A DNA stretch of 64,000 nt, from assembly GCA_947629235.1 (NCBI GenBank), contig CANRCX010000001.1, positions 46,374-110,373 on the forward strand, in the 5' to 3' direction. The notes under the pieces are model-generated. The model was not told where the DNA came from. It saw only the letters and a program-made list of their open reading frames with translations, and did no database searches. Made by a program: the position numbers and the translations under genes. Shown piece after piece: positions 20,372 through 38,910 of this stretch (positions are counted from its first letter, which is position 1; every line of letters starts with the position of its first letter). This DNA is from an uncultured Bacilli bacterium. Its GTDB lineage: Bacteria; Bacillota_I; Bacilli_A; RF39; UBA660.

Positions 20372-20461
20372 AAATTATTTATGATTAAATGTATATAATA
20401 TTATTGCTGTAAAGCAATTAAAAAAGCTAGTGATTCCCACTATAAGAGGAAATTAAAAAAG

Positions 20462-20495
20462 AAACTAGAGAGCTTACTCTAGTTTTGTTTTGTTA
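20462..20495 (+). terminator. Rho-independent terminator
   Basis: AAACTAGAG-agctta-CTCTAGTTT followed by TGTTTTGTT. Confidence 0.65.
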
Positions 20496-20605
20496 TTTAT
20501 TATATAAATTATTAGATAAATGTAACAAATATAATCAATAATTATAATTTACCTATTCACAATTTATCTTTTATCATAAACTATCTATGAAAAGGAGTTG
20601 TTTAT

Positions 20606-20917
20606 ATGACAGATAATATGGGTATGTACCAAGGATATAGTGTTGAAGGTAGTGCAGAATTAAAAGTTACTCCAGATAAAATGACTGAAGGCTCTTCTTG
20701 TTGTATGGAAGCACCTATGATGTGCCCACCAGTTTATGAATGTCCACAAGAAAGATGTATTCATAAACAAATTATACATGAAGTACCACATGTACAACCA
20801 ATCAATACTAGAATAATTAATCATCATATATATAGACATACATATACACCTTGTTATACATGTACTGAAGAAAATGAAGTATGCAATGTTAATGTATGTG
20901 GTCCTAAATATATGTAA
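20606..20917 (+). CDS. Cys/His-rich small protein resembling inner spore coat protein CotD family
   Basis: 103 aa. Repeated H-x-x-V/I-x-P-V/I-N/H-like segments (IHKQIIHEVPHVQPINTRIINHHIYRHTY) and many Cys residues. AAAGGAG RBS. Confidence 0.4.
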   Translation: MTDNMGMYQGYSVEGSAELKVTPDKMTEGSSCCMEAPMMCPPVYECPQERCIHKQIIHEVPHVQPINTRIINHHIYRHTYTPCYTCTEENEVCNVNVCGPKYM

Positions 20918-20926
20918 CTTATTTTT

Positions 20927-20957
20927 ATAAAGACATTTTAATTAATGTCTTTTTTTT
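20927..20957 (+). terminator. Rho-independent terminator (copy 1 of a duplicated 30-nt element)
   Basis: AAAGACATT-ttaatt-AATGTCTTT + TTTTTTT. An identical sequence recurs at 22457-22486. Confidence 0.65.
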
Positions 20958-21052
20958 AAATGATATTCTTACACTTATTATGTAAACTTTTAAAAATTAT
21001 ATGTTAAAAATGTTAAAAAAATTCTATAATTTAGAAAAGGGAGGAGTAGTTT

Positions 21053-22456: not shown

Positions 22457-22487
22457 TAAAGACATTTTAATTAATGTCTTTTTTTGT
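22457..22487 (+). terminator. Rho-independent terminator (copy 2 of duplicated element)
   Basis: Identical AAAGACATTTTAATTAATGTCTTTTTTT to that at 20927-20957. Confidence 0.65.
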
Positions 22488-22499
22488 TATAATTGATTT

Positions 22500-22913
22500 G
22501 TGATTAATATGATAGAAAAAGCAGGATGTATCTTAATGGATACTAAAAATAAAAATATAGCAATTGTATATAGAAAAGAGTATGATGATTATTCTTTTCC
22601 AAAAGGTCATCTTGAAAAAGGTGAAACTTTACTTGAATGTGCTATTCGTGAAACTGAAGAAGAAACTAAAAGAATACCATTAATATTAGATAATAATGAA
22701 ATATTTGTAGAAAAATACAATGATTCTATGGGAAATTTATGTGAAGCACATTATTTTATAGCAAAAGATAATGGTCATAGTGATAATAAATCATTAGAAG
22801 TACATGAATTAATATGGAAAAATATAAATGAAGTAGATAGTATTTTAAGCCATGATCATACAAAAGAAATATGGAATAATGTAAAAGATATTGTTATTAA
22901 ATATATGGAGTAA
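22500..22913 (+). CDS. NUDIX hydrolase
   Basis: Nudix box readable as GHLEKGETLLECAIRETEEETK (Gx5Ex7REUxEExGU). The start may be one of the internal ATGs (MIEKAG… or MDTKNK…). Confidence 0.7.
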   Translation: MINMIEKAGCILMDTKNKNIAIVYRKEYDDYSFPKGHLEKGETLLECAIRETEEETKRIPLILDNNEIFVEKYNDSMGNLCEAHYFIAKDNGHSDNKSLEVHELIWKNINEVDSILSHDHTKEIWNNVKDIVIKYME

Positions 22914-22916
22914 AAT

Positions 22917-23363
22917 ATGAAGAAAAGAATAATACTATGGATACTTGTTATTTTATGGATGGGTATTATTTTTACTTTTTCTAGTTTTAATAGTAATGAG
23001 TCATCTAAACAAAGTAAAGGAATAATTAATTTCTTTATTGAAAATATAGTAGAAATATTTGATAAAGATTTAACAGAAGTAGAAAAAACTAATATTGTTA
23101 ATACACTTCATACTCCAGTTAGAAAACTTGCTCATTTTAGTATATATTTAGTTCTTGGAGTACTGGTTAGTTTACTCTTAAAAACATATAATCTTTCTAC
23201 TAAAAATATAATTTTAATGTCTATTTTAATATGTTTTTTGTATGCAAGTAGTGATGAAATTCATCAATTATTTATTAGTGGTAGAAGTGGAGAATTTAAA
23301 GATATATTACTTGATACATTTGGAAGTAGTGTTGGAATAGCTATATTTGGAAGAAGAAAATAA
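22917..23363 (+). CDS. VanZ-family membrane protein
   Basis: 148 aa with 4 TM helices. Conserved VanZ-like RKLAHFSIY…SDEIHQLFISGRSGEFKD. Confidence 0.65.
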   Translation: MKKRIILWILVILWMGIIFTFSSFNSNESSKQSKGIINFFIENIVEIFDKDLTEVEKTNIVNTLHTPVRKLAHFSIYLVLGVLVSLLLKTYNLSTKNIILMSILICFLYASSDEIHQLFISGRSGEFKDILLDTFGSSVGIAIFGRRK

Positions 23364-23449
23364 ATTATTAATATTTGAATAGTAAATTTTGCTATTCATT
23401 TTTTGTTTTTTATGATATACTTAATTATGATAAGATAGTAGGTGGATAT

Positions 23450-23695
23450 ATGTTAAATAATAAAGTTTTAGTAAATTTATATTGTTTATCATTAGGTAAA
23501 ACTTTTGAAGTATATTTGCCTATAAATGAAAAAATAGGAAATATAACAAAAATATTAAATACAACATTATTTGATTCAATTGATTCATCTAGAAATTATA
23601 TGTTTTTGAATTCAGAAACTGGAAATATATATAAAAATAATGAATTGATAAGAGAAACAGATATAAAAAATGGAACAAAAATAATATTAATGTAA
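23450..23695 (+). CDS. esaB: Type VII secretion ubiquitin-like protein YukD/EsaB
   Basis: ~81 aa from ATG 23450 (AGGTGG RBS 6 nt upstream). Beta-grasp-like pattern ending …ETDIKNGTKIILM, as in YukD (…ITNGDRLEIM). Sits directly upstream of essC. Confidence 0.6.
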   Translation: MLNNKVLVNLYCLSLGKTFEVYLPINEKIGNITKILNTTLFDSIDSSRNYMFLNSETGNIYKNNELIRETDIKNGTKIILM

Positions 23696-23715
23696 GAATA
23701 AAGGGTTAGTGTGTT

Positions 23716-26700
23716 ATGAATATATATCTATTTGATGAAAATTCTATTATTACATTTTGTTTACCAAGTAAAAAAATTGGTAATTTTTGGCTTACAGATA
23801 ATGAAAATAAAAATATAGTAAATATAAAAAATGAAGATAATGATTGGATTATTAGTGGAAGCGAAAATACTAAGGTTATATTAGGAAATAATGAACAAAA
23901 AGCTATTTTAAAATCTAAAAATTATTATGCAGTTGAAAAAAATGATAAGAAATATCCTATATTTGTATATGATTCAAATGACAATACATTCAATCCATAT
24001 ATTTTTCCTGAAAATAAAACAATTAAAGTTGGTAGGATAGATGAAAATGATGTAATTGTTAATATTCCATATTTCCAAAAATTACATTTTTGTTTATCTT
24101 TAGAAAAAGGATACTATAAAATTGAAAAAATGCCTGAATCAATTATGTACTTAAATGATGAAATAATAAAAAATGATATAACCTATGCTAAAACTGGTGA
24201 TGTAATAAATGTATATGGAATAAAGTTTGTTCTTGCACACAATTTAATATTTATAAATAATCCCATTGATAGAGTATGTGTAAAAGATATTTTAGAAAAA
24301 ACATCATTTTCTGTTGATGATGAAATAACTAGTGAAGAAATAATTAATGAAGATTTATATAGTGATAAAGATTATTTTTTAAGAAGCCCAAGACTTAGAA
24401 AAATAATTGAAACATTTAAGTTAAATATTGATTCTCCACCAACAAAAGAAAATATGCAACAAATTCCATTAATTATGACTTTAGCACCAATGATTACTAT
24501 GGCAGCAAGTTCAATGGTAACTCTTTCAAATGCAATACAAACTGTAACATCTGGTGAAAAAACATGGAAACAAAATGCACCAACTTTAGTAATTTGTATT
24601 TCAATGTTATTAAGTATGCTTGTATGGCCTTTTGTAACTAGAATATATGAGCAAAAACAAAAAGAAAAAAGGGAGAATGAAAGACAAGAAAAATATAAAT
24701 CATATTTATCAAATAAAAAAGATGAATTATCAGTGGAATATAATATGCAAAAAAGAATATTAGAAGAAAATTTACTTTCTACTGATATTTGTTATGATAT
24801 GATATTAAATAAAAGAAGAACACTTTGGGAAAGAAAAATAGAAGAAAGTGACTTTTTAACAGTTAGACTTGGTAAAGGTGAAATACCATTTGATGCTGAT
24901 ATATCATATAGAAGTGAAGACTTTACAATGGATGATGATAATTTAAAAAAGATGCTTGATGAATTAATAAAGTCATATAAAACATTAACAGATGTTCCAA
25001 TAGGATACTCTTTTTCTTCTAATAAATATACAGCTGTGAGTGGACTTAATCCTAAATATGTATATTTTGTAAATAATTTATTATTACAGATGATGGCATT
25101 TCATAGCTATGATAATTTAAAATTTGTAATATTTACAAATAAAAAAAATCAAAAAAGATGGAAACATTTTAAAGACTCTCCATATTGTTTTTCTGATGAT
25201 AAATATTATAGATTTTTTGCTACTAATACAGAAGAAATGCAAGAAGTATCAAATTATTTGAAACAAATATTCAATAATAGACAAACTTTATCAAATAATG
25301 GTAGTGAAAATGAAAGAATAAATAATTTTTCTAAATTTAATACATATTATTTATTTATTATTGATGATATAGATTTAGCTAGAAAAATAGATATTGTTGA
25401 TAGTGTTTTAGATGAAAAAAAGAATTTAGGTTTTAGCATTTTAGTTATAGAAGAAAGACTATCTAAATTACCAAGTCAAATAACTAAATTTATAAATATT
25501 GGTGATAAAACATCTGTTGTTATTAACAGTGAAAATAATGATCAAATTAGATTCAATGATGAACTTAAAAATTATAATATGGATTTAGTAACAAATACAC
25601 TTATGAATTTACCATTATATATTGATAATAATATAAAACAATTGCCTAATTCAATAACATTCTTGGAGTTATTCAGTGTAGGTCAAATTGATCAATTAAA
25701 TATTCTTAATAGATGGAAAGATAATGATCCTACTAAGTCGTTAAAAGCTGAAATAGGCGTTAATGAAAATAATGATATATTTGTGTTAGATTTACATGAA
25801 AAAGCACATGGTCCACATGGACTTATTGCTGGTATGACTGGTAGTGGTAAATCAGAGTTTATAATTACTTATATACTTTCTATGGCAATTAATTATAGTC
25901 CAGAAGAAGTCGCTTTTGTATTAATTGATTATAAGGGTGGTGGTCTTGCTGGTGCTTTTGTTAATAATGAAACAAAAGAAAAATTACCACATGTAGTAGG
26001 AACAATTACAAATTTAGATAAAGCAGAAATAAATAGAGCTCTTTCAAGTATTCAAAGTGAGCTTAGAAGAAGACAAACTAAATTTAATGAAGTAAGGGAT
26101 AAATTTGGTGAAAGTACAATTGATATATACAAATATCAAAAATTATATAGAGATGGTATGATTAAGGAAGCTATTCCACATTTAATTATAGTTTGTGATG
26201 AATTTGCAGAATTAAAAGATCAACAACCAGATTTTATGGATGATTTAATTAGTACTGCTCGTATAGGTCGTTCACTTGGAGTACACTTGATTTTAGCAAC
26301 ACAAAAGCCAAGTGGAGTAGTAGATTCACAAATATGGTCTAACTCTAAGTTTAAAGTTTGTTTAAAAGTTCAAGATAAATCAGATAGTATGGAAATGATA
26401 AAGTGTGATTTGGCAGCCGAACTTAAAAATGTTGGTAGATTTTATTTACAAGTAGGATATAATGAATATTTTGCAATGGGTCAAGCTGCTTGGGCTGGAG
26501 CACAATATTATCCAAATAAGGAGTATAAAAAACCAGTCGATAAAAATATGTATTTTATAAATAATACAGGTGCTATAAAAAAAGCATTAAATAATAATTT
26601 TGCTAAAAAATTAGTAAAGTCAGAAGGAGAAGAACTTACATCTATTGTAAAATATGTAATAGATATAAGTAAAAATATTGATATAGATGTAAAACAATTA

Positions 26701-28305
26701 TGGTTAGATAGAATACCAAATAAAATATTGATTCAAGATTTATTTAACAAATATAATTATGCTAAAGAAAGATTTAATATAAATCCAATAATAGGTGAAT
26801 ATGATGATCCAGAGAATCAATTACAAGGATTACTAACTCTTCCTATAACAAGCGATGGTAATACTGTTTTATATGGAATTGCTGATAGTGGAAAAGATGA
26901 ATTTTTGTCTACTTTGGTTTATTCTATAATAATGACTTATGATACAAGTGAAGTTAATTTATATTTATTAGACTTTGGTGCTGAAACATTGATTAATTAT
27001 AGTGAAGCACCACAAGTTGGTGATGTAATATTAAATGGTAATGATGAAAAATTAGAAAATTTAGCTAAAATGTTAAATAATGAAATGAATAAAAGAAAAA
27101 AATTATTTATTTCATATAATGGAAATTATAGAGATTATATTAAAAATAGTGGGAAGACACTGCCTAATATCATTGTAATAATAAATTCTATTGAAGTACT
27201 TACTGATACTTATCAAGATTATATAGATAAATTAATACCTGTAGTAAGAGAAGGAAGTAAATACGGAATTAACTTTGTAGTAACAACAAGTAGTCAAAAT
27301 AATATTAAGTTTAAAATAGCACAAGCTTGTAAACAAATTTTAACTCTTCAATTAAACAATGAAAGTGACTATAGAGATTTGTTAGGAAAAACAAATGGGC
27401 TTATACCATCTTCATGTTTAGGAAGAGGACTTGTCAAATTAGATAGAGTATTAGAATTTCAAACAGCTTTTATAACTAATGATGAAAGTTCATTTGTTAA
27501 AATAAAAGAATTAATAAGTTTACTTAATGAAAAAGGTATTAATAAAGCAAGAGAAATACCAGTTATGCCAGATATTATTAAATTAGATAGATTTAAAGAT
27601 AAATATTTAGGTATAGATACAATACCAATTGGATTAACTAAAGAAACATTAGTATCAAGTTTATATGATTATTCTAAAAATGTTGTTAATATTATTTCTT
27701 CTAATGAAATGGAAAGTATGAGAGAATTTATATTAAATTATTTAAAACTTATTGAACAAAATAGTAATAAGTTTAATAGAGTAGTAATAGATGCATGTAA
27801 TTATTTTGAAAACTTTAATTATAATATAAATTTAATAAATGATAAATTTGATTCTGCAATTGATTCATTAAAGAAAATTGATGATAGTTTCCAACAAATA
27901 ATTGAGAAAAACAATATGAATTTAAGAAGTGTTAAAAATCAAATGAATAGTTTAATAATTATAATTGGATTTGATAAATTCTTAACTAGATTAGATGATG
28001 CTCATAAAGAAATGTTTAAAAATATTTTGAAAAATCAAAAAGAAATTTTAAAATTATCATTTGTATTAATTGATATACCATCTGCATTTAAAAAATATGA
28101 ATATGAAGAATGGTATAAAGATAGCATTACTGGAAACGATGGATTATGGATTGGAAATAATATTTCACAACAATTTGTTATCAAAACAACAATTCAACCA
28201 AATAGTATTAATAATATTGGAAATGGTTATGCAGTTTCAGTTAAAAATGGTATGCCAATTGTTATAAAATTAATAAATGAAATAAAAGTCAAAAAAAGAG
28301 AATAA
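23716..28305 (+). CDS. essC: Type VII secretion system ATPase EssC/YukB (FtsK/SpoIIIE family)
   Basis: 1529 aa. N-terminal FHA-like region. Two TM helices (~aa 250-300). First ATPase domain with HGPHGLIAGMTGSGKSE Walker A and LIIVCDEFAEL Walker B. Two further degenerate P-loop domains (GIADSGKDEF…). Confidence 0.85.
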   Translation: MNIYLFDENSIITFCLPSKKIGNFWLTDNENKNIVNIKNEDNDWIISGSENTKVILGNNEQKAILKSKNYYAVEKNDKKYPIFVYDSNDNTFNPYIFPENKTIKVGRIDENDVIVNIPYFQKLHFCLSLEKGYYKIEKMPESIMYLNDEIIKNDITYAKTGDVINVYGIKFVLAHNLIFINNPIDRVCVKDILEKTSFSVDDEITSEEIINEDLYSDKDYFLRSPRLRKIIETFKLNIDSPPTKENMQQIPLIMTLAPMITMAASSMVTLSNAIQTVTSGEKTWKQNAPTLVICISMLLSMLVWPFVTRIYEQKQKEKRENERQEKYKSYLSNKKDELSVEYNMQKRILEENLLSTDICYDMILNKRRTLWERKIEESDFLTVRLGKGEIPFDADISYRSEDFTMDDDNLKKMLDELIKSYKTLTDVPIGYSFSSNKYTAVSGLNPKYVYFVNNLLLQMMAFHSYDNLKFVIFTNKKNQKRWKHFKDSPYCFSDDKYYRFFATNTEEMQEVSNYLKQIFNNRQTLSNNGSENERINNFSKFNTYYLFIIDDIDLARKIDIVDSVLDEKKNLGFSILVIEERLSKLPSQITKFINIGDKTSVVINSENNDQIRFNDELKNYNMDLVTNTLMNLPLYIDNNIKQLPNSITFLELFSVGQIDQLNILNRWKDNDPTKSLKAEIGVNENNDIFVLDLHEKAHGPHGLIAGMTGSGKSEFIITYILSMAINYSPEEVAFVLIDYKGGGLAGAFVNNETKEKLPHVVGTITNLDKAEINRALSSIQSELRRRQTKFNEVRDKFGESTIDIYKYQKLYRDGMIKEAIPHLIIVCDEFAELKDQQPDFMDDLISTARIGRSLGVHLILATQKPSGVVDSQIWSNSKFKVCLKVQDKSDSMEMIKCDLAAELKNVGRFYLQVGYNEYFAMGQAAWAGAQYYPNKEYKKPVDKNMYFINNTGAIKKALNNNFAKKLVKSEGEELTSIVKYVIDISKNIDIDVKQLWLDRIPNKILIQDLFNKYNYAKERFNINPIIGEYDDPENQLQGLLTLPITSDGNTVLYGIADSGKDEFLSTLVYSIIMTYDTSEVNLYLLDFGAETLINYSEAPQVGDVILNGNDEKLENLAKMLNNEMNKRKKLFISYNGNYRDYIKNSGKTLPNIIVIINSIEVLTDTYQDYIDKLIPVVREGSKYGINFVVTTSSQNNIKFKIAQACKQILTLQLNNESDYRDLLGKTNGLIPSSCLGRGLVKLDRVLEFQTAFITNDESSFVKIKELISLLNEKGINKAREIPVMPDIIKLDRFKDKYLGIDTIPIGLTKETLVSSLYDYSKNVVNIISSNEMESMREFILNYLKLIEQNSNKFNRVVIDACNYFENFNYNINLINDKFDSAIDSLKKIDDSFQQIIEKNNMNLRSVKNQMNSLIIIIGFDKFLTRLDDAHKEMFKNILKNQKEILKLSFVLIDIPSAFKKYEYEEWYKDSITGNDGLWIGNNISQQFVIKTTIQPNSINNIGNGYAVSVKNGMPIVIKLINEIKVKKRE

Positions 28306-28425
28306 ATTTATTTAAAAAACTACAATTTTTTACAAATAAGTTTTATTCTTTTTGCTGATTAAATTAAAATTACTTTACAATAAAAACCAAATATTGTAAA
28401 CTTATTATAGGAGGTAAAATGATAT

Positions 28426-29043
28426 ATGAATCATAAAGTAAATAATGTACAAAATTTATTTGATGATGCTCGAACTTTGTATATGTCTGTAGTTACAGGT
28501 GGGGCTCCTTATTCTGCTGATACAATAATTACTAATTTATCAACTGGAATTGATATATTAAAAAATTGTTGGTTTGGTAAAGATGCTGGAGTTCAAATTC
28601 AAAATTTAGTAGTTGTTCATAATGCAATGGTTGCAGTAAGAAATTCTTTAGGATTTTTAGCTGAAACTACTACTAAAATTGCATCTAATTATAGAGAAAT
28701 ACAAAATTCTAATGGTGCAGGTCTTGAAACATTAGTTCCAGTTACAAATGAAAATAGAACAATTCTTGGTAGCTATAGTGATATGAGAGATACTATTAAC
28801 ATTTCTCCAGAAGCAAATAATGGAAATCAAAAAGTTGTAGCTGCAAATGGTGAAATTGATAATTTCATTAGTAATGTAAGAAAATATTTTGACCAAATTA
28901 TGAATAATTGGACAGCTGGACCTGGAAGAGAAGAATTTCAAAATGAATTTAATACTTTTGTAAGTAGTGCAAATAAATACAAATCAGTATTAAATGAAGC
29001 ATCACAAAGTATAGCAACTGCTATAAAAAATTATGGAATGTAA
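28426..29043 (+). CDS. WXG-motif helical protein; candidate T7SS substrate or toxin chaperone (WXG100/Lap-like)
   Basis: 205 aa, helical. W-x-G motif in KNCWFGKDAG near residue 50. Located immediately 3' of essC and 5' of the giant toxin. Strong AGGAGG RBS. Confidence 0.4.
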   Translation: MNHKVNNVQNLFDDARTLYMSVVTGGAPYSADTIITNLSTGIDILKNCWFGKDAGVQIQNLVVVHNAMVAVRNSLGFLAETTTKIASNYREIQNSNGAGLETLVPVTNENRTILGSYSDMRDTINISPEANNGNQKVVAANGEIDNFISNVRKYFDQIMNNWTAGPGREEFQNEFNTFVSSANKYKSVLNEASQSIATAIKNYGM

Positions 29044-29048
29044 TAATA

Positions 29049-29072
29049 AGAAGCAATTTTGCTTCTTATTTC
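29049..29072 (+). terminator. Weak terminator-like hairpin
   Basis: AAGAAGCA-attt-TGCTTCTT followed by ATTTCC (short U-tract). Confidence 0.35.
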
Positions 29073-29124
29073 CTAAGTTGAATAGTATATATTCTATTTA
29101 GGAAATAAGAAGGAGAGTGATATT

Positions 29125-29568
29125 ATGGCATCTTCATCATATTGGGCAGGAAGACTAAATGAAGCAAAAGCATTAAAGGCAAAAGCAGAAGAAAGATTAA
29201 AAAAATTAGAAGAACTAAAAGGAAAAATAGATCCAATTCCAGAAGCATTAGAATCAGTAATTGATACTTTTCAAAAAATAGGATTTAGTTTATCTGCAGT
29301 TTGTCCAGCTGGTTATCCAATAGATAATGGAAGTTATAATAAAAATGCAGATGATTTGCAGACTGCAGAAAGTGATTATCTTTCATTAATAAGTGAATGT
29401 GCCAATCAAATAGAGGCTGAGAGACTCGATATTAGAGATTTTGATAATTCGATTACATACTATCAAAATCAATATGATATAGCTGTTGAAGCAGAAAGAC
29501 AGGCATATTTAGCATCATTACAAAATGCGAATAATAGTAAAAAGAATAATACTAGTACAAAAAAATGA
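29125..29568 (+). CDS. Small helical hypothetical protein (possible toxin-associated accessory)
   Basis: 147 aa, predicted coiled-coil/helical. AGGAG RBS. Sits between the WXG protein and the toxin gene. Confidence 0.45.
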   Translation: MASSSYWAGRLNEAKALKAKAEERLKKLEELKGKIDPIPEALESVIDTFQKIGFSLSAVCPAGYPIDNGSYNKNADDLQTAESDYLSLISECANQIEAERLDIRDFDNSITYYQNQYDIAVEAERQAYLASLQNANNSKKNNTSTKK

Positions 29569-29589: not shown

Positions 29590-32500
29590 ATGAGATGCAT
29601 AAATTGTGGAAAAGAAATAGATGTTAGTTATGGAATGGTAATGTGTCCATATTGTGGAAGAATATTGGATGATAAAATAGATAAAACAGATTATGAAAAT
29701 GCATATAATGAATTTTCAAACGAAAGAGAAGAATTAAAAAAAAACAATAAAGATAATGATAAGCCAATAACAAATGAATTTAATAAAATGGATGATAATA
29801 CCAAACTAAAAAAAGCTATTGTAGGTGGACTAGCAACTACTGCTTTTGCAGCAAGTGCTGGAAGTCTTTATGCTGCAAATAAAAATATTAACAAAAGTAA
29901 TAAAGAAAACAAAAATAAAACTTTTCCAGATGATAATATTAACAATGTTGTTATAAATGATAACGATGAAATAGAAGAAAATGCAGACAATATATTAGAT
30001 GATGATTTATTTGATTCTAACGATGTGACTAATGAAGAAGACAATATAATAGTTGATAATAATGAAAATTTAGATACAAATAATAGTAGCCAAGCAGCTA
30101 AAGATAATGGTATAGATTATAACCCAAATGCAACTCCTTCTAAACCAAAAAAAAGTACTTCAAAAAAAGTAACATCCAAATCAAATAATAACAAAAATTC
30201 AACTACTACTTCAAAAGATGAAAATAGTAATGATAATAATTTAAATAATGAAGATCAAATAATAACAGATGAAAATATATCAGAAAACGAACAAGATTCA
30301 TCATCAGAAGAAACAGAAGATGATATATTTAAAAATCCAAATGAAGATGATGATACATCAAATAACGAACCTGATATAGATTCTGATAAATCAGATGAGA
30401 ATATTACTGATAATGAAGAATCTAATATCGATACATCAGAAGAAGGATTTGAAAATTTATCTCCATATCCAGCAACTACAATATCAAATAATACTAATTA
30501 TACAAATGATTCGTCATATAATAGTTCATCATTTTCGGTAGATTATTTTCATCTAGAAAATGCTATATCTTTAATAAATAATGCAAATGATTCTTTTAGT
30601 AATATAGTATCATTAACTTCTGATATAAATACTGACGGATTAAATTTACAAACATCTGTAGCCTCAGCTAATGCTACTATAGAAAAATGTTTTGGAAATG
30701 CATCTGGAAGTAAAGTTGGAGTTTCTGCTGGTACGGCATCTCAATTAAACAAATTAAGATCAGATTTACAAAAAATGGATCCAGATTATGATTTTAATTA
30801 TGATTATTATAAATATATGAATTTAGGTTATTTATCAGAGCAAGAAGGATGGAATTCTGATGAATTTAAAAAACAAGAAAGTAGTTTAGAATCAAGTTTA
30901 AGAAGTGAAATAGGAGAAAGAAAAAAAGAGTATGAAGGAAATACTAAAAAGATAGAATTTTTAGACCAAGTTATTGAATCAATAGATATTCAAAATGAGG
31001 CATTCGAAAATTATTATAAAAATTTAGTTGATATTGAAACATTTACTGCTGTAAATCAGTACGTATCTGATAGAATGAATGATTCTACTATACCTGCTAA
31101 TTCTACATATGAAAAATATATTGATGAAAAAGTACAAGAATTAAAAGATTTGAATGCAGAAAATGAAAAAAAATATAATGAATTAGAGAAGGCTAAGCAA
31201 AAAAATAAAAATGATATAAATACTAAAAATGGAACAGAAAATACTTCTTCTGAAGAAGAACTTACTGTTTCAAAATACTCTGATGGAACATATGCATATT
31301 TAGATGAACAAAGCTTACAATTATTACAATATTATACTAATTATAAGTATTTAAATGCATGTAATGAGAGTAATTCAATTTCATCAATCCAAAGTCAAAT
31401 ATCATCATTAGAAACTAAATTAAAAATGAATCAAGATAGTTTGAATTCTGGAATTGTTTATGAGAATGGTTATCCAACTGTTATGTCTAATGATGAAAAA
31501 ACTGAATTAGAAAATATAAATAAAAAATTAAGTCAAGAAAAAGATGATTTAAATAATAGAATTAATCAAATAAATGAATCTTTTGAAAGTATTCTTAAAG
31601 ATTATTATGATGCTAATGCTGAATCAATTTATAGAATACCAGAAATAAATAGAAAACCTGAACAAAAAGATTTCTTACTTTCAAGAGATAGTTATGTTGC
31701 AACTTTACAACAAAAAGATTTGAGAAATGAAATTCAAGAATATCAACAATATATAGAAGATATACAAGAAGAAATAGATAGTTTATCAGAAAAAGCAGCA
31801 GGAGCATATGCAACAAATGTATCTTATAATAGTTCAGAATATTCTGGAATAAATTATTATGCAAATTATAAAGCTGCTTTAAAATATGGATATGGTTTAG
31901 AGTATTTAGATGAAAAAGAACAAGCTAGATATAAATTTTTATTAGAAACTGTTTCTTCACTTGAAGAAAAAAGTGCCATTGCTTTAGATGCAAATAATAA
32001 ATTAGAAGAATTAAAACAACAATTAATAATGCAAAGAAGTGATTATAGTAAGTATTCTAATTTTAATAATATAAAAGTAGAAAATGGATTTTTTGGTGGT
32101 TTAGTTTTTAGAGATGCTACCACTAATGAAAAATTAGATTTGTCTAAAGAAGAACAAGCTGTAATTTTAGCAATGAAAGGCAGTAACTCTACAAATGGTA
32201 CAGTAAATGAATATATAAATTATTTAAAAAACGGAAGTGAAAATTTATCTTATGATGCTTTAGGTGTTATAGCATATAATATGAATAAATCAAAAGAATT
32301 TGAGGGATATGATTCTAACTTTGCTTCTAGTTTTGATTATCTTTATGATCAAGGTGCAAGAATACTTGGAAAACAAATGGCAGATGAATTTACTACTAGA
32401 TTAGATAATTGTCCTGATATATTTGATTGGGTTTTAGTTGCAGATGAGGCATTAGAAGATGGATTGACTGGTTTCTTCCGTGGATTTAAAAATATATTTT

Positions 32501-35500
32501 GTGCGGATGGAAGAGCAGATGCTAGAGATTATAAACCAATGTTTATAACAGATTATATTAATAATTCTGATCAATATTGTGGACTTTATAAAACAATTCT
32601 TACAAGTGAATATGAAATTACAAATAGTATAGGAAATATGTTACCATCTATGTTAGTTACTTTAATACCTGTTGTTGGTCCTGCTGTTGGTTTAATTTCT
32701 TTAGGTGTTTCTGCTGCAGGTAATGCTAGAGAACAAGGATTACAACAAGGCATGAGTCAAGCTTCAGCGTGGATGTATGGTGTTCTATCTGGTGCTTCTG
32801 AAGCTTTACTTGAGAAGTTCCTCGGAGGTATTCCTGGTCTTTCAGATATGTCAAATGTTGTTGGAGTTCATGGACTTGCAAGAATATTTAAGGCTGGATG
32901 TAGTGAAGCTAGAGAAGAAATGTTACAAGAATTCTTGGATCCAATATTTAAATTTGTATCAACAGGTGGAGAAATAAGAGAAAATATAAGTGTAGAAAAT
33001 ATTTTAAAAGCTGGAATTTATGCTTTTATAACTGCAGGAATTTTAAATGGTGGAAATGTAGCATTTGAAGGAGTTTCATATAGATTAACAGGAGATTATT
33101 TAGCTCTTGGTACTTTAGCATCTTTAAATACAAATAGTGATTTATCTATAAAAGAAAATATTAAAAATTTCTTAAGAGATTTAAATGAATTCCAAAATAG
33201 GGATATTAAGTCTCTTGAAGAAAGCTTAATGGAAAATGAAGAAGTAAAAGCTGCTTATGAAGCTGCTAAGGCTGGTAAAGGTGATCTTGCATTTAATGAT
33301 TTTGTATCTAGAATTGTAGTTGAACAAGTTGTTAGTGAAAATAATGCATTATCACAAGAGTTATCTGAAGAAATTAAACAAAAAACAAAAGATTTACAAG
33401 ATTTAAGAAATAAAAATATTGATGGTAGATATAATGAAGATATAAGTAAATTAGAAAGTGAAATAAATGATTTAACAGAGCAAAGAAAATCTATTTATGA
33501 TAATGATATGACAATTCAAGATTCAATAGAAAGAGCAAAAGAAAAAGCTGTTCAAAATATCGATGACTTAATAAGAAGAAATAACAAGCATTTAGCAAAA
33601 GATTTATCAGAAGTATCAGCTGAAAATCTAATAGAATATTTAAATAATACAGAAATAACAGCAGAAAAAATAAAAGTGTTATTTGATAATATTAGTGAAG
33701 AAAAAATAAATAAGATATTAGAAGAAAAACCAGAATTAAAAGCATTATTAGAAGAAAATAGTACTGAAAGTACTGATGCAAGTGTAATAAATCATGAGTT
33801 GATAGATAAATTTAAAGCAACTAAAAATTATGCAGAAAAAATAGAATTAATAGAACAAATGAGTTCAGAAGAAATAGTACAATTATTAAAAGAAGACTCA
33901 CAAGCAAAATTAGTACTAGGAAAAATAAAAGATAATGCGAAATTAGCAGATGTAATAAACAAATCAAATTCAGAAGTACTAAATTCAATTTTTGGTCCAC
34001 CATTAAATGAATATTCTGATACAACAACACAATTAAAGGAAACATTAAAAGCAAAATTAAAAGGCCAAGCATTATTTGAAGGAACTATAAATAAATTAAG
34101 AGAATTAGGAATAGAAATAGAAGAAAGTGAAGAACAAATAGAAACTTCAGATGATACAACGGCTGAACCAACTTCTGAAATAGTAGATCATCATGATGCA
34201 ACAACTGAAGAAAGTGAGTCAAAAACTCTACCAAAAAGTGATAATAGTACTGAAAGTACTGATGCAAGCGTAATAAGTCATGAATTGATAGATAAATTTA
34301 AAGCAACTAAAAATTATGCAGAAAAAATAGAATTAATAGAACAAATGAGTTCAGAAGAAATAGTACAATTATTAAAAGAAGACTCACAAGCAAAATTAGT
34401 ACTAGGAAAAATAAAAGATAATGCGAAATTAGCAGATGTAATAAACAAATCAAATTCAGAAGTACTAAATTCAATTTTTGGTACACAATTAAATGAATAT
34501 TCTGATACAACAACACAATTAAAGGAAACATTAAAAGAAAAATTAAAAGGTCAAACATTATTTGAAGGAACTATAAATAAATTAAGAGAATTAGGAATAG
34601 AGATTGAAGAAAGTGAAAAAACAAGTCATGAATTGATAGATAAATTTAAAGCAACTAAAAATTATGCAGAAAAAATAGAATTAATAGAACAAATGAGTTC
34701 AGAAGAAATAGTACAATTATTAAAAGAAGACTCACAAGCAAAATTAGTACTAGGAAAAATAAAAGATAATGCAAAATTAGCAGATGTAATAAACAAATCA
34801 AATTCAGAAGTATTAAATTCAATTTTTGCTACACAATTAAATGAACATTCTGATGCAACAACACAATTAAAGGAAACATTAAAAGCAAAATTAAAAGGTC
34901 AAACATTATTTGAAGGAACTATAAATAAATTAAGAGAATTAGGAATAGAAATAGAAGAAAGTGAAAAACAAGTAGAAATTGCACATGATATAACAACAGA
35001 ACAAACATCTGAAATAGTAGATCATCAAGATACAACAACTGATAAAGCAGCAGAAGAAACAGATCATCAAGATACAACAACTGATAAAGCAGCAGAAGAA
35101 ACAGATCATCAAGATGCAACAATTAAACCAACACCAGAAGAAACAGATCATCAAGATGCAACAATTGAACCAACACCAGATGAAGCAGGTCAACAAGATG
35201 CAACAATTGAACCAACACCAGATGAAGCAGAACAACATGATACAATAATTGAACCAACAATAGAAGATGCAGGTCAACATGATGCATTAACAGATGCAAC
35301 AGCAAAAGTAGATGAGGCACATGATGTAGTAACAGATGCAGCAGAACAAGTAAAAGAAGCAGAGAATTTAGTGGATTCTTCATCTGAAAATAATCAAGCA
35401 TCTGTTCCACCAGTTCCACCAATAGTAGATATTGACTCAAATGCAAATCAATCACCTATAAAGATGGAAATATCTGAATTTTTAGCAAAATATAAAGGCT

Positions 35501-37206
35501 TTAAAAATATATATGAATTTAAACAAAAATTTTCATCATTGTTAAGTCAATGGGAAAGTTCTTTAACGGCTAGAGAAATAAGTTTAATTGAGAATTATAC
35601 AGGTAATAATGAAATGGAATTTGGAAATTATGCAACTGTAAATAGCATATTGAGAGGAATCTTTTTCAATTCACAAGATGGTAAAATTCACATTAAAAGA
35701 ATTGGTGGAGATGAAGATTCATATACTTTTTCAGAATTTGCTTATATGGTAAGGAGTAAATACTCTTCTGCAGCAAATCTTAGTGATGCAGATGCAATAA
35801 AGTTTTTTGTGAGAGGCCAAATACAAGCTATAAATGATTTATCTAATGCAATAAGTAAATTTGAACTTCCAGAAGATATATTATTGGAAAGACGCATTGG
35901 TGGTAGTTCATTAGTTAAACTCTTTAATATTGATATAAATAATGATTCTGTTGAGGATGTTGTAAGAAAAATAAATGATGGTGGTTATTTTAGAGATAAT
36001 GGTTTTATGAGTACTTCAGCCGGTAAATCTCCAGGATATGGAAATGTTGTACTAAAGCTTGGATGTAAAGCTGGTATGTCTGCAGTTGATATCACAGGAA
36101 ATAGTAAATATTCAGTTGGAGAAAATGAAGTCCTTGTAAACATTGGTACAACATTTAGAGCGGTAAATGCAGAAAGAGTAAATGGAAGATTAGTTATTTA
36201 TTTAGAAAGTATTCCAGCTAATAATATTCAAGTTGATAGTATGGATAGCTTAAAAACATTTATTTCTGATAATATAAATGCTTCACCAAATTCAATAGCT
36301 AAAACAATTAATAATTATTTTGAACAACAAATGAAAAATAATGCATCTAATTCATACTTAAAACAAAGCCTTTATTATGATTTATTAGAAATATCTGGTA
36401 TGCCTGGAATTGATCAAACAACTATGTCAGAAATATTATCTTCAGTAATTTCAAATAATAAAGAAATGAGATCAATAATATATGAAATGGCACAAGAAGA
36501 AATAAAGCAAAGTTTTAAAGATACATTAGATATACAAAATGATGCTGATATAAAAACATTAACAGATTTTATATTAGGAGAATCTTTTGTAGAAAATGGT
36601 GTTGGTAATCAAAATTGGGATGGATTTTTTAACTTTATATATGATAAAGTTAAAGAATCAGTTGCTAAATCTGCAAAAAATAAAGAAGCAATATTATGGA
36701 GTAAGCTTCCAACAATAGCATTAAATCAAATGTATTCTACAATTGAAAATACTACACTTGGAGATACTATGTACTTTTTAGATTTAGTTTATTCAAATTG
36801 GAATAGTCAATTTAGCACTTTACCACCATTAGAAGAATTCTGGGGTAAAATGTCTAAATTATATGCAGAAGCATGTTCTAATTTAAAAGATGAAAATGGA
36901 AATCCAATAACAAAATTAAAATATATTTATCCAGGTCAAGATGCTATAGGTGAGTTATTTAAAAAAGAAGAATTACCTACATTGTTAGAAAAAGGAGTAA
37001 TAAAAACATTGGAAGTTGTTAAAGCTAATGTAGATGAAACAAATCCAGATTTACCTAAACTAACAAATGAAAAAACAATAGAAATAGATTTAACAGAATT
37101 AAGCAATTTCTATAGAAAGAATCTTAATAAAGGTGTTTCAAAAGATATTTTAATTGAAAAAGTTTATTCAAAATTCATTGAATTATTACATAAGGGAGGT
37201 TTATAA
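29590..37206 (+). CDS. Giant modular protein with C-terminal ADP-ribosyltransferase (iota/VIP2/C2-type, R-S-ExE) toxin domain
   Basis: 2538 aa. N-terminal CxxC…CxxC zinc ribbon (CINCGK…CPYCGR) then a TM helix (KLKKAIVGGLATTAFAASAGSLYAA). A D/N/S-rich linker, then a long helical region. A hydrophobic Gly-rich segment (aa ~1000-1150). Three ~116-aa tandem repeats, then TDHQD acidic repeats and a PPVPP motif. In the C-terminus the ART motifs read LLERRIGG (Arg, nt 35888-35893), FMSTSAG (STS, nt 36004-36024) and GENEVLV (ExE, nt 36118-36138). Confidence 0.8.
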   Translation: MRCINCGKEIDVSYGMVMCPYCGRILDDKIDKTDYENAYNEFSNEREELKKNNKDNDKPITNEFNKMDDNTKLKKAIVGGLATTAFAASAGSLYAANKNINKSNKENKNKTFPDDNINNVVINDNDEIEENADNILDDDLFDSNDVTNEEDNIIVDNNENLDTNNSSQAAKDNGIDYNPNATPSKPKKSTSKKVTSKSNNNKNSTTTSKDENSNDNNLNNEDQIITDENISENEQDSSSEETEDDIFKNPNEDDDTSNNEPDIDSDKSDENITDNEESNIDTSEEGFENLSPYPATTISNNTNYTNDSSYNSSSFSVDYFHLENAISLINNANDSFSNIVSLTSDINTDGLNLQTSVASANATIEKCFGNASGSKVGVSAGTASQLNKLRSDLQKMDPDYDFNYDYYKYMNLGYLSEQEGWNSDEFKKQESSLESSLRSEIGERKKEYEGNTKKIEFLDQVIESIDIQNEAFENYYKNLVDIETFTAVNQYVSDRMNDSTIPANSTYEKYIDEKVQELKDLNAENEKKYNELEKAKQKNKNDINTKNGTENTSSEEELTVSKYSDGTYAYLDEQSLQLLQYYTNYKYLNACNESNSISSIQSQISSLETKLKMNQDSLNSGIVYENGYPTVMSNDEKTELENINKKLSQEKDDLNNRINQINESFESILKDYYDANAESIYRIPEINRKPEQKDFLLSRDSYVATLQQKDLRNEIQEYQQYIEDIQEEIDSLSEKAAGAYATNVSYNSSEYSGINYYANYKAALKYGYGLEYLDEKEQARYKFLLETVSSLEEKSAIALDANNKLEELKQQLIMQRSDYSKYSNFNNIKVENGFFGGLVFRDATTNEKLDLSKEEQAVILAMKGSNSTNGTVNEYINYLKNGSENLSYDALGVIAYNMNKSKEFEGYDSNFASSFDYLYDQGARILGKQMADEFTTRLDNCPDIFDWVLVADEALEDGLTGFFRGFKNIFCADGRADARDYKPMFITDYINNSDQYCGLYKTILTSEYEITNSIGNMLPSMLVTLIPVVGPAVGLISLGVSAAGNAREQGLQQGMSQASAWMYGVLSGASEALLEKFLGGIPGLSDMSNVVGVHGLARIFKAGCSEAREEMLQEFLDPIFKFVSTGGEIRENISVENILKAGIYAFITAGILNGGNVAFEGVSYRLTGDYLALGTLASLNTNSDLSIKENIKNFLRDLNEFQNRDIKSLEESLMENEEVKAAYEAAKAGKGDLAFNDFVSRIVVEQVVSENNALSQELSEEIKQKTKDLQDLRNKNIDGRYNEDISKLESEINDLTEQRKSIYDNDMTIQDSIERAKEKAVQNIDDLIRRNNKHLAKDLSEVSAENLIEYLNNTEITAEKIKVLFDNISEEKINKILEEKPELKALLEENSTESTDASVINHELIDKFKATKNYAEKIELIEQMSSEEIVQLLKEDSQAKLVLGKIKDNAKLADVINKSNSEVLNSIFGPPLNEYSDTTTQLKETLKAKLKGQALFEGTINKLRELGIEIEESEEQIETSDDTTAEPTSEIVDHHDATTEESESKTLPKSDNSTESTDASVISHELIDKFKATKNYAEKIELIEQMSSEEIVQLLKEDSQAKLVLGKIKDNAKLADVINKSNSEVLNSIFGTQLNEYSDTTTQLKETLKEKLKGQTLFEGTINKLRELGIEIEESEKTSHELIDKFKATKNYAEKIELIEQMSSEEIVQLLKEDSQAKLVLGKIKDNAKLADVINKSNSEVLNSIFATQLNEHSDATTQLKETLKAKLKGQTLFEGTINKLRELGIEIEESEKQVEIAHDITTEQTSEIVDHQDTTTDKAAEETDHQDTTTDKAAEETDHQDATIKPTPEETDHQDATIEPTPDEAGQQDATIEPTPDEAEQHDTIIEPTIEDAGQHDALTDATAKVDEAHDVVTDAAEQVKEAENLVDSSSENNQASVPPVPPIVDIDSNANQSPIKMEISEFLAKYKGFKNIYEFKQKFSSLLSQWESSLTAREISLIENYTGNNEMEFGNYATVNSILRGIFFNSQDGKIHIKRIGGDEDSYTFSEFAYMVRSKYSSAANLSDADAIKFFVRGQIQAINDLSNAISKFELPEDILLERRIGGSSLVKLFNIDINNDSVEDVVRKINDGGYFRDNGFMSTSAGKSPGYGNVVLKLGCKAGMSAVDITGNSKYSVGENEVLVNIGTTFRAVNAERVNGRLVIYLESIPANNIQVDSMDSLKTFISDNINASPNSIAKTINNYFEQQMKNNASNSYLKQSLYYDLLEISGMPGIDQTTMSEILSSVISNNKEMRSIIYEMAQEEIKQSFKDTLDIQNDADIKTLTDFILGESFVENGVGNQNWDGFFNFIYDKVKESVAKSAKNKEAILWSKLPTIALNQMYSTIENTTLGDTMYFLDLVYSNWNSQFSTLPPLEEFWGKMSKLYAEACSNLKDENGNPITKLKYIYPGQDAIGELFKKEELPTLLEKGVIKTLEVVKANVDETNPDLPKLTNEKTIEIDLTELSNFYRKNLNKGVSKDILIEKVYSKFIELLHKGGL
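33760..34966 (+). repeat. Three near-identical in-frame tandem repeats (~348-nt core; ~116 aa) inside the toxin gene
   Basis: Units begin ~33760, ~34246 and ~34621 and each ends in GAAGAAAGTGAA. Their protein sequence (SHELIDKFKATKNYAEKIELIEQMSSEEIVQLLKEDSQAKLVLGKIKDNAKLADVINKSNSEVLNSIF…KGQTLFEGTINKLRELGIEIEESE) is nearly identical at nt level. Confidence 0.9.
35020..35290 (+). repeat. Short degenerate acidic tandem repeats (DHQDTTTDKAAEET / DHQDATIEPTPDEA)
   Basis: A 42-nt unit gatcatcaagatacaacaactgataaagcagcagaagaaaca is repeated exactly twice, followed by 3-4 diverged copies. Confidence 0.8.
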
Positions 37207-37207
37207 T

Positions 37208-37711
37208 ATGAATGCATTAACACAAATTAACACAGATTTATATGATAAGAGATTAGATATAAAATTCAATCCAGATTTATTAAATGAACTTGATTATGAT
37301 AGTAGGCATAAAGTGGAAAAAACTTTATTATCTTATTGTAAGCAAGGAATTGAAACATCATTTAAATATCTACAATATTTTAATACAATTAGTGAAGAAG
37401 ATATGATAACAGAAGAAGATATTTCAAAACTTTCATTACCATATCAGGTGGAAATTTATAGATTCTTATTTTTAAAAAGTAAAAATTTGGATATATTAAA
37501 TAAATTAATTAATTTATCTATGAATTCTTATAACGCTTTTTACCAGTTGTTAATGATATATAATTCTGATATAATAACTGATGAAGAAAAGGAAAAAATA
37601 AAATTAGCAATAGATAAGTCATTTGAAAATAATAAAACAGATATAAATTATAAATTTTTGATTGATAATTATATAGATGGTTATGATAATGATGATATAA
37701 AATTGTTATAA
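37208..37711 (+). CDS. Small helical protein immediately 3' of ART toxin; candidate immunity protein
   Basis: ~167 aa from ATG 37208 (GGGAGG RBS 9 nt upstream). The ORF-track start at 37154 overlaps the toxin 3' end and lacks an RBS. No recognisable family. Position is typical of a cognate immunity gene. Confidence 0.5.
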   Translation: MNALTQINTDLYDKRLDIKFNPDLLNELDYDSRHKVEKTLLSYCKQGIETSFKYLQYFNTISEEDMITEEDISKLSLPYQVEIYRFLFLKSKNLDILNKLINLSMNSYNAFYQLLMIYNSDIITDEEKEKIKLAIDKSFENNKTDINYKFLIDNYIDGYDNDDIKLL

Positions 37712-37730: not shown

Positions 37731-37946
37731 ATGGAAAATAAGTATAGTAAATTTAAAAGTGATGAAGAAAATGAATTTACTACTGGTAATAAACGTGGTA
37801 GTTTAACACAAGAACAAATAAGAGAAGAATTGGAACAAAAATTACAGTCACAATTAAAAATGATTGATGACTGGGTTGCATCATCTTCAAGTCAAGAAGC
37901 AGATGAAGAACAAGAGCAAGAAAGAGAAGAAGGACTGCATAGATAA
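37731..37946 (+). CDS. Small acidic hypothetical protein
   Basis: 71 aa. Strong AGGAGG RBS. C-terminus is highly acidic (EADEEQEQEREE). The stop abuts the start of the ADP-ribosylglycohydrolase gene. Confidence 0.35.
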   Translation: MENKYSKFKSDEENEFTTGNKRGSLTQEQIREELEQKLQSQLKMIDDWVASSSSQEADEEQEQEREEGLHR

Positions 37947-37947
37947 T

Positions 37948-38910
37948 ATGAATAATATTATAAAAAATGGTTTATATGGTTTTGCTATTGGTGATGCAAT
38001 GGGTGTACCAATTGAATTCACACCTAGAGTTAGCGATGAATCAAAAAAATTAAAAGAAATGGTAGGATATGGATCACATCATGTTCCAGAGGGAACTTGG
38101 TCAGATGATACTTCAATGACAATTGCTACTATGGATTCTATACAAGAATGTAAAGGAATTGATTATTATGATATAATGGATAAATTTACAAATTGGTATA
38201 ATAATGCATTGTATACTGCAACTGATAGAGTCTTTGATATTGGAAATACTACACGTTTGGCAATAGATAAATATAGTAGATTATCAATGAATCCACTTCA
38301 ATGTGGTGGAAAAAATGAAAGAGACAATGGTAATGGTTCACTAATGAGAATGCTTCCTATTGCAATATATTTATTTTATAATAATTTAAGTGAACAAGAA
38401 GAAATGGAAATAGTAAAAAACATTTCTTCTCTAACTCATGCCCATGATATTAGTATATTAGGATGTAAAATATATGTAGATTTTATTAAAGAAATTCTTT
38501 CTGGAAAATCAAAAGAAGATGCATATAATAGTTTATCCAAAAATAATTATAATGTTTATTTTGATAATAATACAATTGAAAAATATGATTCTATATTAAA
38601 TGGTAATTTGAAAAATAAATCAATAGATGAAATAAGATCATCTGGTTATGTAGTTAATACACTAGAAGCATGTTTGTGGTGTACGTTAAATACAAAAAAT
38701 TATGAAGAGAGTATAATAGAAGCAATTAATTTAGGAAAAGATACTGATACAGTAGGTGCAATTACAGGATCTTTAACTGGATTAATATATGGATATGATA
38801 ATATACCACAAAGATGGCTATCAAAATTAAGAAAAAAAGAATATTTAGATGAACTAATTGATAAGTTTAATAATTATTTAAATAATGAAAATGTTAAAGT
38901 TAGAGGATAA
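37948..38910 (+). CDS. ADP-ribosylglycohydrolase (DraG/ARH family)
   Basis: ~320 aa from ATG 37948. N-terminal GLYGFAIGDAMGVPIEF matches the ARH family metal-binding region. C-terminal …KDTDTVGAITGSLTGLIYG is the conserved second Asp cluster. The ORF-track start at 37864 is an in-frame 5' extension. Confidence 0.8.
   Translation: MNNIIKNGLYGFAIGDAMGVPIEFTPRVSDESKKLKEMVGYGSHHVPEGTWSDDTSMTIATMDSIQECKGIDYYDIMDKFTNWYNNALYTATDRVFDIGNTTRLAIDKYSRLSMNPLQCGGKNERDNGNGSLMRMLPIAIYLFYNNLSEQEEMEIVKNISSLTHAHDISILGCKIYVDFIKEILSGKSKEDAYNSLSKNNYNVYFDNNTIEKYDSILNGNLKNKSIDEIRSSGYVVNTLEACLWCTLNTKNYEESIIEAINLGKDTDTVGAITGSLTGLIYGYDNIPQRWLSKLRKKEYLDELIDKFNNYLNNENVKVRG

Follow-up and report, generated by a model that had tools for sequence, protein, structure and literature searches.

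Why should a single toxin gene carry three nearly identical copies of one long coding unit, followed by an array of short acidic repeats? The question is raised by a giant open reading frame (ORF) of 2,538 residues (29590..37206), which was found in a 64,000-nucleotide (nt) stretch of DNA from an uncultured low-GC gut Bacilli bacterium (GenBank contig CANRCX010000001.1; 24.6% G+C). This whole stretch is referred to as the window, its coordinates are used throughout, and features lie on the plus strand unless stated otherwise. The ORF contains the repeats, lies beside genes of a type VII secretion system (T7SS), and encodes an ADP-ribosyltransferase (ART) toxin domain behind the repeats. On balance, the repeats are best read as the modular linker of a giant, T7SS-associated polymorphic toxin, assembled from two in-frame repeat kinds and resized by recombination. 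In its makeup this looks like an ordinary linker, prone to recombination and variable in length.

Anatomy of the Repeat Region

Two kinds of repeat succeed each other in the gene. The region opens with a diverged half-unit (amino acids (aa) 1338–1390; 33601..33759), which aligns to the first half of the longer repeat unit and occupies the same position in an orthologue from a related locus, L004. Three full units follow. Unit 1 (aa 1391–1514; 33760..34131), after which colinearity with the L004 orthologue ends, and unit 2 (aa 1553–1676; 34246..34617) each consist of a leader and a core, with the 34-nt leader (NSTESTDASVI) common to both. Unit 3 (34618..34965) is leaderless and abuts unit 2 directly, which gives rise to a period of 348 nt. 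Units 1 and 2 are separated by a 39-aa linker region (34132..34245) that holds one acidic repeat (34153–34209), 84% identical to the first unit of the acidic array described below, and then the sequence SESKTLPKSD. Owing to this linker, the period from unit 1 to unit 2 is 162 aa. An acidic segment 3′ of the unit is common to units 1 and 3.

The units were recovered in two repeat searches. One of these returned 300-nt copies (n = 3) at 33786–34085, 34272–34571, and 34620–34919, with 96–98% identity and spacings of 486 and 348 nt. Tandem Repeats Finder reported a 348-nt period at 34275–34973 (2.0 copies, 97% matches) as well as 42-nt periods at 34987–35286. The three periods of 348, 486, and 42 nt are all divisible by three, and the repeats are in frame. 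Chance is not an issue as a source of 300+ nt at 97% identity, and Rfam gave no match in the repeat region.

When the units are compared in codon register over 339 nt, 8 differences separate units 1 and 2, 8 separate units 2 and 3, and 10 separate units 1 and 3, corresponding to 97.1–97.6% identity. Each pair differs by 4 synonymous and 4–6 non-synonymous codons, and the longest exact runs common to unit pairs are 140–198 nt. All but two of the variable codons of the unit fall in codons 63–109. Copy-specific sites number 5, 3, and 5 in units 1, 2, and 3, respectively. This pattern is star-like, and no mosaic gene-conversion tracts were seen among the three copies. Units 1 and 2 also contain identical 83-aa ORFs on the minus strand (33821–34072 and 34307–34558). 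These were ruled out as genes, since unit 3 has no equivalent ORF, and they are most likely a by-product of the repeats.

The second kind of repeat forms an acidic, Thr/Pro-rich array (34987..~35364) of nine to ten 42-nt (14-aa) repeats with the pattern D(A/T)T(I/T)(E/D)PTPEE(T/A)(D/G)(H/Q)(Q/H). Two copies at 35029–35112 are exact, and later copies fall to 63–75% identity. The segment from aa 1792 to 1945 has a net charge of −38 and is dominated by T, E, D, A, and P. A PPVPP motif (aa 1940–1944; 35407..35421), which opens the C-terminal toxin module, stands two degenerate units beyond the array.

Much of this anatomy had been described in an initial annotation made from the letters of the sequence. 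Its account of near-identical units with few substitutions and different linkers was borne out by the 8–10 differences per 339 nt, the 39-aa linker between units 1 and 2, and the direct junction of units 2 and 3. Its term "116-aa tandem repeats" fits units 2 and 3 but not unit 1, which the linker sets off. With regard to the 42-nt acidic repeats, the sequence of two exact copies followed by diverged ones is correct, but the PPVPP end was placed within a region closing at 35290 and in fact lies downstream of that position.

Probable Homogenization and Copy Number

Between units 1 and 3 there are 10 differences in 339 nt (2.9%), compared with 14 in 78 nt (18%) in the homologous flank behind them (p = 9e-6). 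With the flanks so much more diverged than the units themselves, the units have either been homogenized or were duplicated later than the flanks, in keeping with the recent expansion or gene conversion that the initial annotation had proposed. A second comparison leads in the same direction. Amino acid identities between units are 87–96% within the window and 64% within the L004 protein, but only ~29% between the two genomes. Since the units are alike within each genome and so different between genomes, duplication or homogenization is specific to each lineage.

The initial annotation had further expected the region to be prone to copy-number variation or to collapse in assembly, and a record from a nearly identical strain agrees with this expectation. 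L001 is a metagenome contig from ENA, assembled in SPAdes style at 2.9x coverage. It is identical to the window across 4.2 kb upstream of the repeats, save one replaced segment, and differs from it at 2 of 2832 nt downstream. Where the window has three units L001 has a single one, and it has one 42-nt acidic repeat fewer. The single unit is chimeric: it follows copy 1 at offset 5, copies 1 and 2 at offset 146, and copy 3 at offset 186 and beyond. In doing so it pairs G146 with T186, a combination that occurs in no window copy within 41 nt and that hints at a real variant unit. The divergence between paralogous units (2.4–2.9%) is far above that between the strains (<0.1%), so a single copy would not be ancestral but the product of recombination of unit 1 with unit 3. 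The difference in copy number itself is either a real deletion or an assembly collapse. Other contigs of the locus (L011–L014) end before the repeats, and the comparison of copy number thus covers the window and L001.

The replaced segment of L001 lies elsewhere in the gene. At L001 positions 2772–2812, 24 nt of the window (32353–32376; encoding GARILGKQ) are swapped for 41 nt, which introduce an in-frame stop and an AGGAG ribosome-binding site ahead of the Met930 codon (ATG). As a result, the giant gene falls into two genes, of 930 aa and 1317 aa, with the break just ahead of the conserved hydrophobic core. The orthologues in the related loci L004–L006 are unbroken at this site, and a contig from another sample (L013) ends 78 nt short of it. 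The split resembles a natural split/fusion polymorphism more than it does a sequencing error.

Related Loci and the Trunk/Cassette Boundary

A scan for EssC in one genome per species yielded seven loci, from metagenome-assembled genomes (MAGs) of uncultured gut Bacilli and "Clostridium". The closest is L004, from a rabbit-gut MAG, with an EssC that is 81% identical to that of the window. L004, L005, and L006 share the order EssC, a 205–207-aa WXG-like gene, a ~144-aa gene, and a giant ORF, the last with a minimum length of 2558 aa in L004, 2854 aa in L005, and 2820 aa in L006.

The giant protein of L004 is colinear with that of the window over window aa 1–1503, i.e., to the end of unit 1, at 32% identity. 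Past this point the L004 protein has a ~210-aa linker, a second unit of its own (64% identical to the first one in aa, 78% in nt), more degenerate helical repeats, and a HExxH domain in place of the ART domain. By this alignment, the units straddle the trunk/cassette boundary of the putative polymorphic toxin, such that the half-unit and unit 1 can be assigned to the conserved trunk, and the extra units plus the acidic array to the start of the variable C-terminal part. Behind the HExxH domain, the L004 protein ends at the contig edge in repeated SEGELTLEELD(R/K)VTAG segments (L004 17890–18067; aa ~2500–2558), which we take to resemble leader peptides of the double-glycine type.

Predicted Fold and Family of the Helical Unit

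The unit is exceedingly rare. When 1.84 billion representative proteins were searched exhaustively with the unit in phmmer, three matches were returned, namely P0002, P0003 (E = 5e-6), and P0004 (E = 3e-5), of which P0002 is the same gene in another assembly. With the unit, the whole protein, or a unit alignment as the query, word-indexed protein searches found only the protein itself. Scans with the unit of species-representative genomes, JGI metagenomes (two scans), and IMG/VR viral contigs found none, and PDB sequence searches with the unit and the unit profile gave chance-level matches only (TPR-like, SRP68). Judging from these matches, the unit is a genuine conserved domain of a very rare family.

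P0003 and P0004 each have one N-terminal unit followed by a long coiled coil, and are encoded in housekeeping gene contexts. An NCBI genome encodes a 756-aa protein, P0005, of which P0003 is a truncated copy, and a further copy of the unit occurs in a 314-aa neighbor of P0003. The sample that yielded P0003 also holds the T7SS locus described here (L013) at equal coverage, and for this reason the cellular paralogue of the unit probably belongs to the organism that carries this locus. The long coiled-coil proteins P0003/P0005 (L002 5719–7722) and P0004 (L003 2423–4723) also share a PGGPAQ(S/N)(T/P) repeat tract. A conserved gene of 87–88 aa precedes both, and in L002 the gene for the 314-aa unit protein stands between.

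The relatives point toward a known fold. Against the Pfam model MgtE_N (PF03448; cut-off 25.9 bits), the P0003 unit scores 26.0 bits, the P0004 unit 25.3, and unit b of L004 23.7, and the window units are linked to MgtE_N transitively, through the phmmer match at E = 5e-6. A single-sequence AlphaFold2 (AF2) model of the full unit has eight helices and a predicted local distance difference test (pLDDT) score of 66, with residues 12–78 confident. The model of the unit core has six short helices and a pLDDT of 76.6; the two-helix tail is of low confidence in the full model. The core superposes on the MgtE chains 2oux_B (TM-score 0.52; root-mean-square deviation (rmsd) 3.6 Å) and 2yvx_A (TM-score 0.54) and on FliG 8umd_B (TM-score 0.56), with rmsd values of 3.6–3.9 Å on MgtE N domains. 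Together these results are moderate evidence that the unit is a distant MgtE-N/FliG-like helical module. The three-helix bundle predicted by the initial annotation was rejected on the AF2 models, which give six short helices plus two of low confidence and have their best geometric matches in the right-handed, ARM-like superhelices of MgtE N and FliG, not in bundles.

Proposed Mechanism and Alternative Explanations

In the mechanism proposed here, the linker would have two parts. One would be a folded, all-alpha module of ~116–123 aa, with a six-helix core and a two-helix tail, present as a diverged half-copy and three near-identical copies; the other, the acidic Thr/Pro-rich 14-aa repeat, is probably extended or disordered. 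Extra copies of the unit would arise through unequal homologous recombination, gene conversion would keep the copies alike, and the same recombination could delete or add copies while leaving the reading frame intact. The distance from trunk to toxin, and the flexibility of the connection, would thereby vary between strains. In the initial annotation, the acidic repeats were likened to a flexible stalk, both repeat kinds were linked with surface-exposed or contact-mediating proteins, and the repeats would set the reach of the toxin domain; each of these roles is putative. We infer both the fold class of the unit and the spacer ("stalk") function of the region.

A number of results weigh against this interpretation. 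Three copies, one of them set apart by a linker, make a weak "array". A match to the LXG domain (PF04740) is lacking at E ≤ 1 in the whole giant protein and in its segments, and the protein has neither a Sec signal peptide nor an LPXTG motif. The window's own units have no MgtE_N match at E ≤ 1, hhalign assigned a probability of 2% to the alignment of the unit profile with one MgtE N domain, and Foldseek searches of the PDB and a viral library with both unit models gave no significant match (E ≥ 0.9; core ≥ 3.9). In addition, the relatives of the unit are N-terminal in apparently cytoplasmic coiled-coil proteins, so that the domain may bind specifically rather than act passively. Finally, L001 is a single contig at 2.9x coverage, and the exact runs of 140–198 nt between copies and a 55-nt self-match of the acidic array at a shift of 42 suffice for a de Bruijn assembler with k = 55 to collapse the repeats.

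The last of these points bears on the view that the copy-number difference is purely an effect of assembly, whereby L001 is collapsed or, less likely, the window is over-expanded, and there is no biological variation in copy number. This is a substantial possibility, if short of probable. The origin of L001 as a 2.9x, SPAdes-style contig fits it, as do identical runs in the units that exceed usual k-mer sizes and the exact 55-nt self-match of the acidic array. A chimeric unit, with the 5′ end of copy 1 and the 3′ end of copy 3, is moreover the outcome of a collapsed graph path. However, the window copies carry private substitutions (5, 3, and 5) and different flanks, so over-expansion is unlikely; the G146/T186 pair means that the reads of the sample hold a unit variant absent from the window; and the clean replacement of 24 nt by 41 nt elsewhere in the gene marks L001 as a distinct haplotype.

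Two further explanations concern what the units do. Were they a binding platform, they would dock a secretion partner, a chaperone, or the 167-aa protein encoded behind the toxin, or would self-associate (all putative partners), and a change in copies would alter valency rather than length. Helical repeats of the MgtE-N/FliG type are typical protein–protein interaction surfaces; other members of the family have one N-terminal unit on long coiled-coil proteins in housekeeping contexts, the N-terminal 60 codons are near-invariant among the three copies, with substitutions clustered in the tail, and the half-unit and unit 1 are kept in the orthologue. Yet the near-invariance of the core extends to synonymous sites, pointing to conversion and not to protein-level selection, and the orthologues differ in copy number and spacing (three close together here, two ~210 aa apart in L004). 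In our estimation the platform is rather unlikely. Alternatively, the unit could be a homology patch that marks the trunk/cassette boundary for the swapping of C-terminal toxin cassettes, with the extra copies as scars of exchange. The model for this is provided by Rhs and contact-dependent inhibition (CDI) systems, which have conserved pre-toxin motifs. It would agree with the colinearity with L004 stopping at the end of unit 1, with everything beyond differing, toxin domain included, and with the presence of further units inside the variable part in both genomes. Nevertheless, it seems highly improbable: no orphan cassette or extra unit occurs elsewhere in the 64-kb window or in related loci, the units of the two genomes, at only ~29% identity, are too far apart to recombine between lineages, and no cassette intervenes where unit 2 adjoins unit 3.

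The modular linker resized by recombination is thus the reading that is retained here. A more ambitious form of it is unlikely, though it can be stated. The unit would belong to an undescribed family, an MgtE-N/FliG offshoot recruited from a cellular coiled-coil protein of the organism itself, and identical copies, gained and lost in frame, would combine with the acidic repeats to tune the presentation or delivery of the toxin head, as a "periscope" principle in a type VII toxin instead of an adhesin.

Domain Layout of the Giant Protein

From its N-terminus, the giant protein comprises a zinc ribbon (aa 1–31), an Ala/Gly-rich, weakly hydrophobic stretch (aa 76–96), a low-complexity region of N, D, and S, a coiled-coil-rich region, a hydrophobic core, the repeats, the ART domain, and an extra C-terminal domain. 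The core (aa ~915–1300; 32332..33489) is conserved and glycine-rich, encloses the single strongly hydrophobic stretch of the protein (aa 1022–1046), and has no Pfam or PDB match. It is common to the four giants of the EssC loci, as the only region that all of them share, and to giant proteins of MuF-type phages. An LXG or EsaA/YueB-like component was considered for the layout of transmembrane segment, long coiled coil, and hydrophobic cluster, and found no Pfam or NCBIfam match. An LPXTG surface protein was ruled out by the absence of the motif.

The phage relatives of the core (~30% identity over 190 aa) occur in nine IMG/VR contigs (L015–L023) of ~61% G+C. The protein that carries the core there measures 2240 aa or more, contains a MuF_C domain, and has its gene just behind a portal-like one; this makes it a MuF-type "polyvalent" head protein; it also gives a weak match to PHROG 2206 ("virion RNA polymerase"). 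From this distribution, the core may be a delivery or translocation module common to giant proteins that are injected by phages and those exported by a T7SS.

The ART domain is of the R-S-E type (aa 2078–2194; 35821..36171) and matches PF03496 (ADPrib_exo_Tox) with E = 4.7e-16 and 59.1 bits, against a cut-off of 23.4. Its motifs are the R in LLERRIGG (aa 2098–2105), the STS in FMSTSAG (aa 2139–2145), and the ExE in GENEVLV (aa 2177–2183), and its best solved relatives in the PDB are Lmo0066 (8za7; E = 2.6e-8) and Tre1 (6dre; E = 0.015). This match, at 59 bits, along with an ADP-ribosylglycohydrolase (ARH) gene downstream, upholds the earlier assignment of the repeats to a toxin gene. The protein does not end with the ART domain but continues for another 330 aa. 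These include an extra C-terminal domain of ~280 aa (aa 2234–2515; 36289..37134), function unassigned, which has a homologue in the interior of the L006 giant (aa 1813–2088 of that protein). Given this homology, the giant protein may carry more than one effector module.

Gene Neighborhood

The genes around the toxin place it in a T7SS locus. EssC, the type VII secretion ATPase (23716..28305; TIGR03928, E = 6e-297), is followed by a WXG100-like protein of 205 aa (28426..29043), syntenic in L004–L006, and by a 147-aa protein (29125..29568) that has no family match, stands at the same position in related loci, and may be a secretion partner. On this gene order, the giant toxin would be exported by the neighboring type VII system. 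Homologues of EsaA, EssA, EssB, and EsaB were not detected near the locus (19871–29568) with Pfam or NCBIfam, and the system may be a non-canonical T7SS variant.

Directly 3′ of the toxin gene lies the gene for the 167-aa protein (37208..37711; function unassigned), and then that for the ARH (37864..38910; PF03747, E = 5e-74, 250 bits), an enzyme of the type expected to confer immunity. The ARH ORF is listed from a TTG start, at 348 aa. Contigs L011 and L012 instead have a call of 320 aa and a separate 71-aa gene ahead of it, and the true start is probably later than 37864. Immunity proteins of the Imm-ARG type are described as strict partners of ARTs of the R-S-E type (PMC3482391), and Lmo0066 belongs to a type VII hypervariable region of Listeria (PMC5417603).

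The flanks of the locus are chromosomal, with an L10 leader, ORFs of rpoB/rpoC size, ffh, RNase J, and a T-box leader. Between rpoC and ffh (13627–18456) lies the gene for a 1609-aa protein with superfamily-1 helicase domains (AAA_11, AAA_12, and AAA_30) and a C-terminal MTES_1575/DUF559 endonuclease domain. The interval from ffh to essC encodes a DUF2628 protein, a Nudix hydrolase, a VanZ protein, and small uncharacterized proteins.

Comparison with Known Systems

By context and by the variability of its cassette, the giant protein belongs with the T7SS-associated polymorphic toxins of Bacillota (LXG-type, Zhang et al. 2012, PMC3482391; T7SS variants, PMC11217815). Like these, it is encoded directly 3′ of EssC and WXG100-like genes, has a conserved N-terminal trunk and a variable C-terminal toxin (ART here, HExxH in the orthologue), and is accompanied by an immunity-type gene downstream and genes for small helical proteins just upstream. 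It differs in length (~2,500 aa versus ~400–700 aa), in the lack of a detected LXG domain, in its N-terminal zinc ribbon, in a core that is common to phage MuF-type giants, and in its near-identical internal repeats; nor were homologues of EsaA, EssA, and EssB detected near this locus. The toxin head resembles the Tre1–Tri1 pair (an ART with ARH-type immunity of a type VI secretion system) and the Imm-ARG/R-S-E pairs, in that the ART domain matches Tre1 and Lmo0066 and an ARH gene follows. In contrast, Tre1–Tri1 has a different secretion system and carrier, the ART domain here is not terminal, and the likeness concerns the toxin head rather than the repeats.

With respect to the unit, the likeness to MgtE N/FliG (PF03448) consists of relatives at the Pfam threshold and of a six-helix core that superposes best on these folds (TM-score 0.52–0.56). 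The window units differ in scoring below the model, in having an extra two-helix tail (…TINKLRxxG…), and in their toxin context, which has no link to Mg2+ transport or flagella. The unit would therewith add a small and taxonomically narrow domain family at the edge of MgtE_N to what is otherwise an ordinary feature of polymorphic toxins.

The closest parallel for the repeats themselves is found in the Periscope Proteins (SasG/Aap, Rib/alpha C, and Sgo_0707; PMC8201768), which have stalks of variable length. Both have in-frame repeats of folded domains that are nearly identical in DNA, for which length variation by intragenic recombination is expected. The three units here reach 97.1–97.6% nt identity, although only units 2 and 3 are strictly in tandem, and the three units of the window versus one in L001 fit a variable copy number, although a collapse would give the same picture. 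Unlike the toxin, Periscope Proteins are wall-anchored adhesins with beta-rich domains in many copies that form demonstrated rods. Here, three all-alpha copies, one set apart, occur in a toxin without an LPXTG-type motif or signal peptide, with a zinc ribbon at its N-terminus and an ART toxin as the distal domain.

If the difference in copy number is real, it would mean that length variation among near-clonal strains by way of identical domain repeats extends beyond adhesins to a secreted antibacterial toxin, and such variation would offer a testable entry point to the presentation of toxin heads by giant type VII substrates. As a practical matter, short-read metagenome assembly has a documented pitfall here: one record has the gene at 2,538 aa, and another has it split and with one unit only. 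What is new is the rare domain family and its use as near-identical repeats within a giant type VII toxin; the phenomenon as such is a familiar one.

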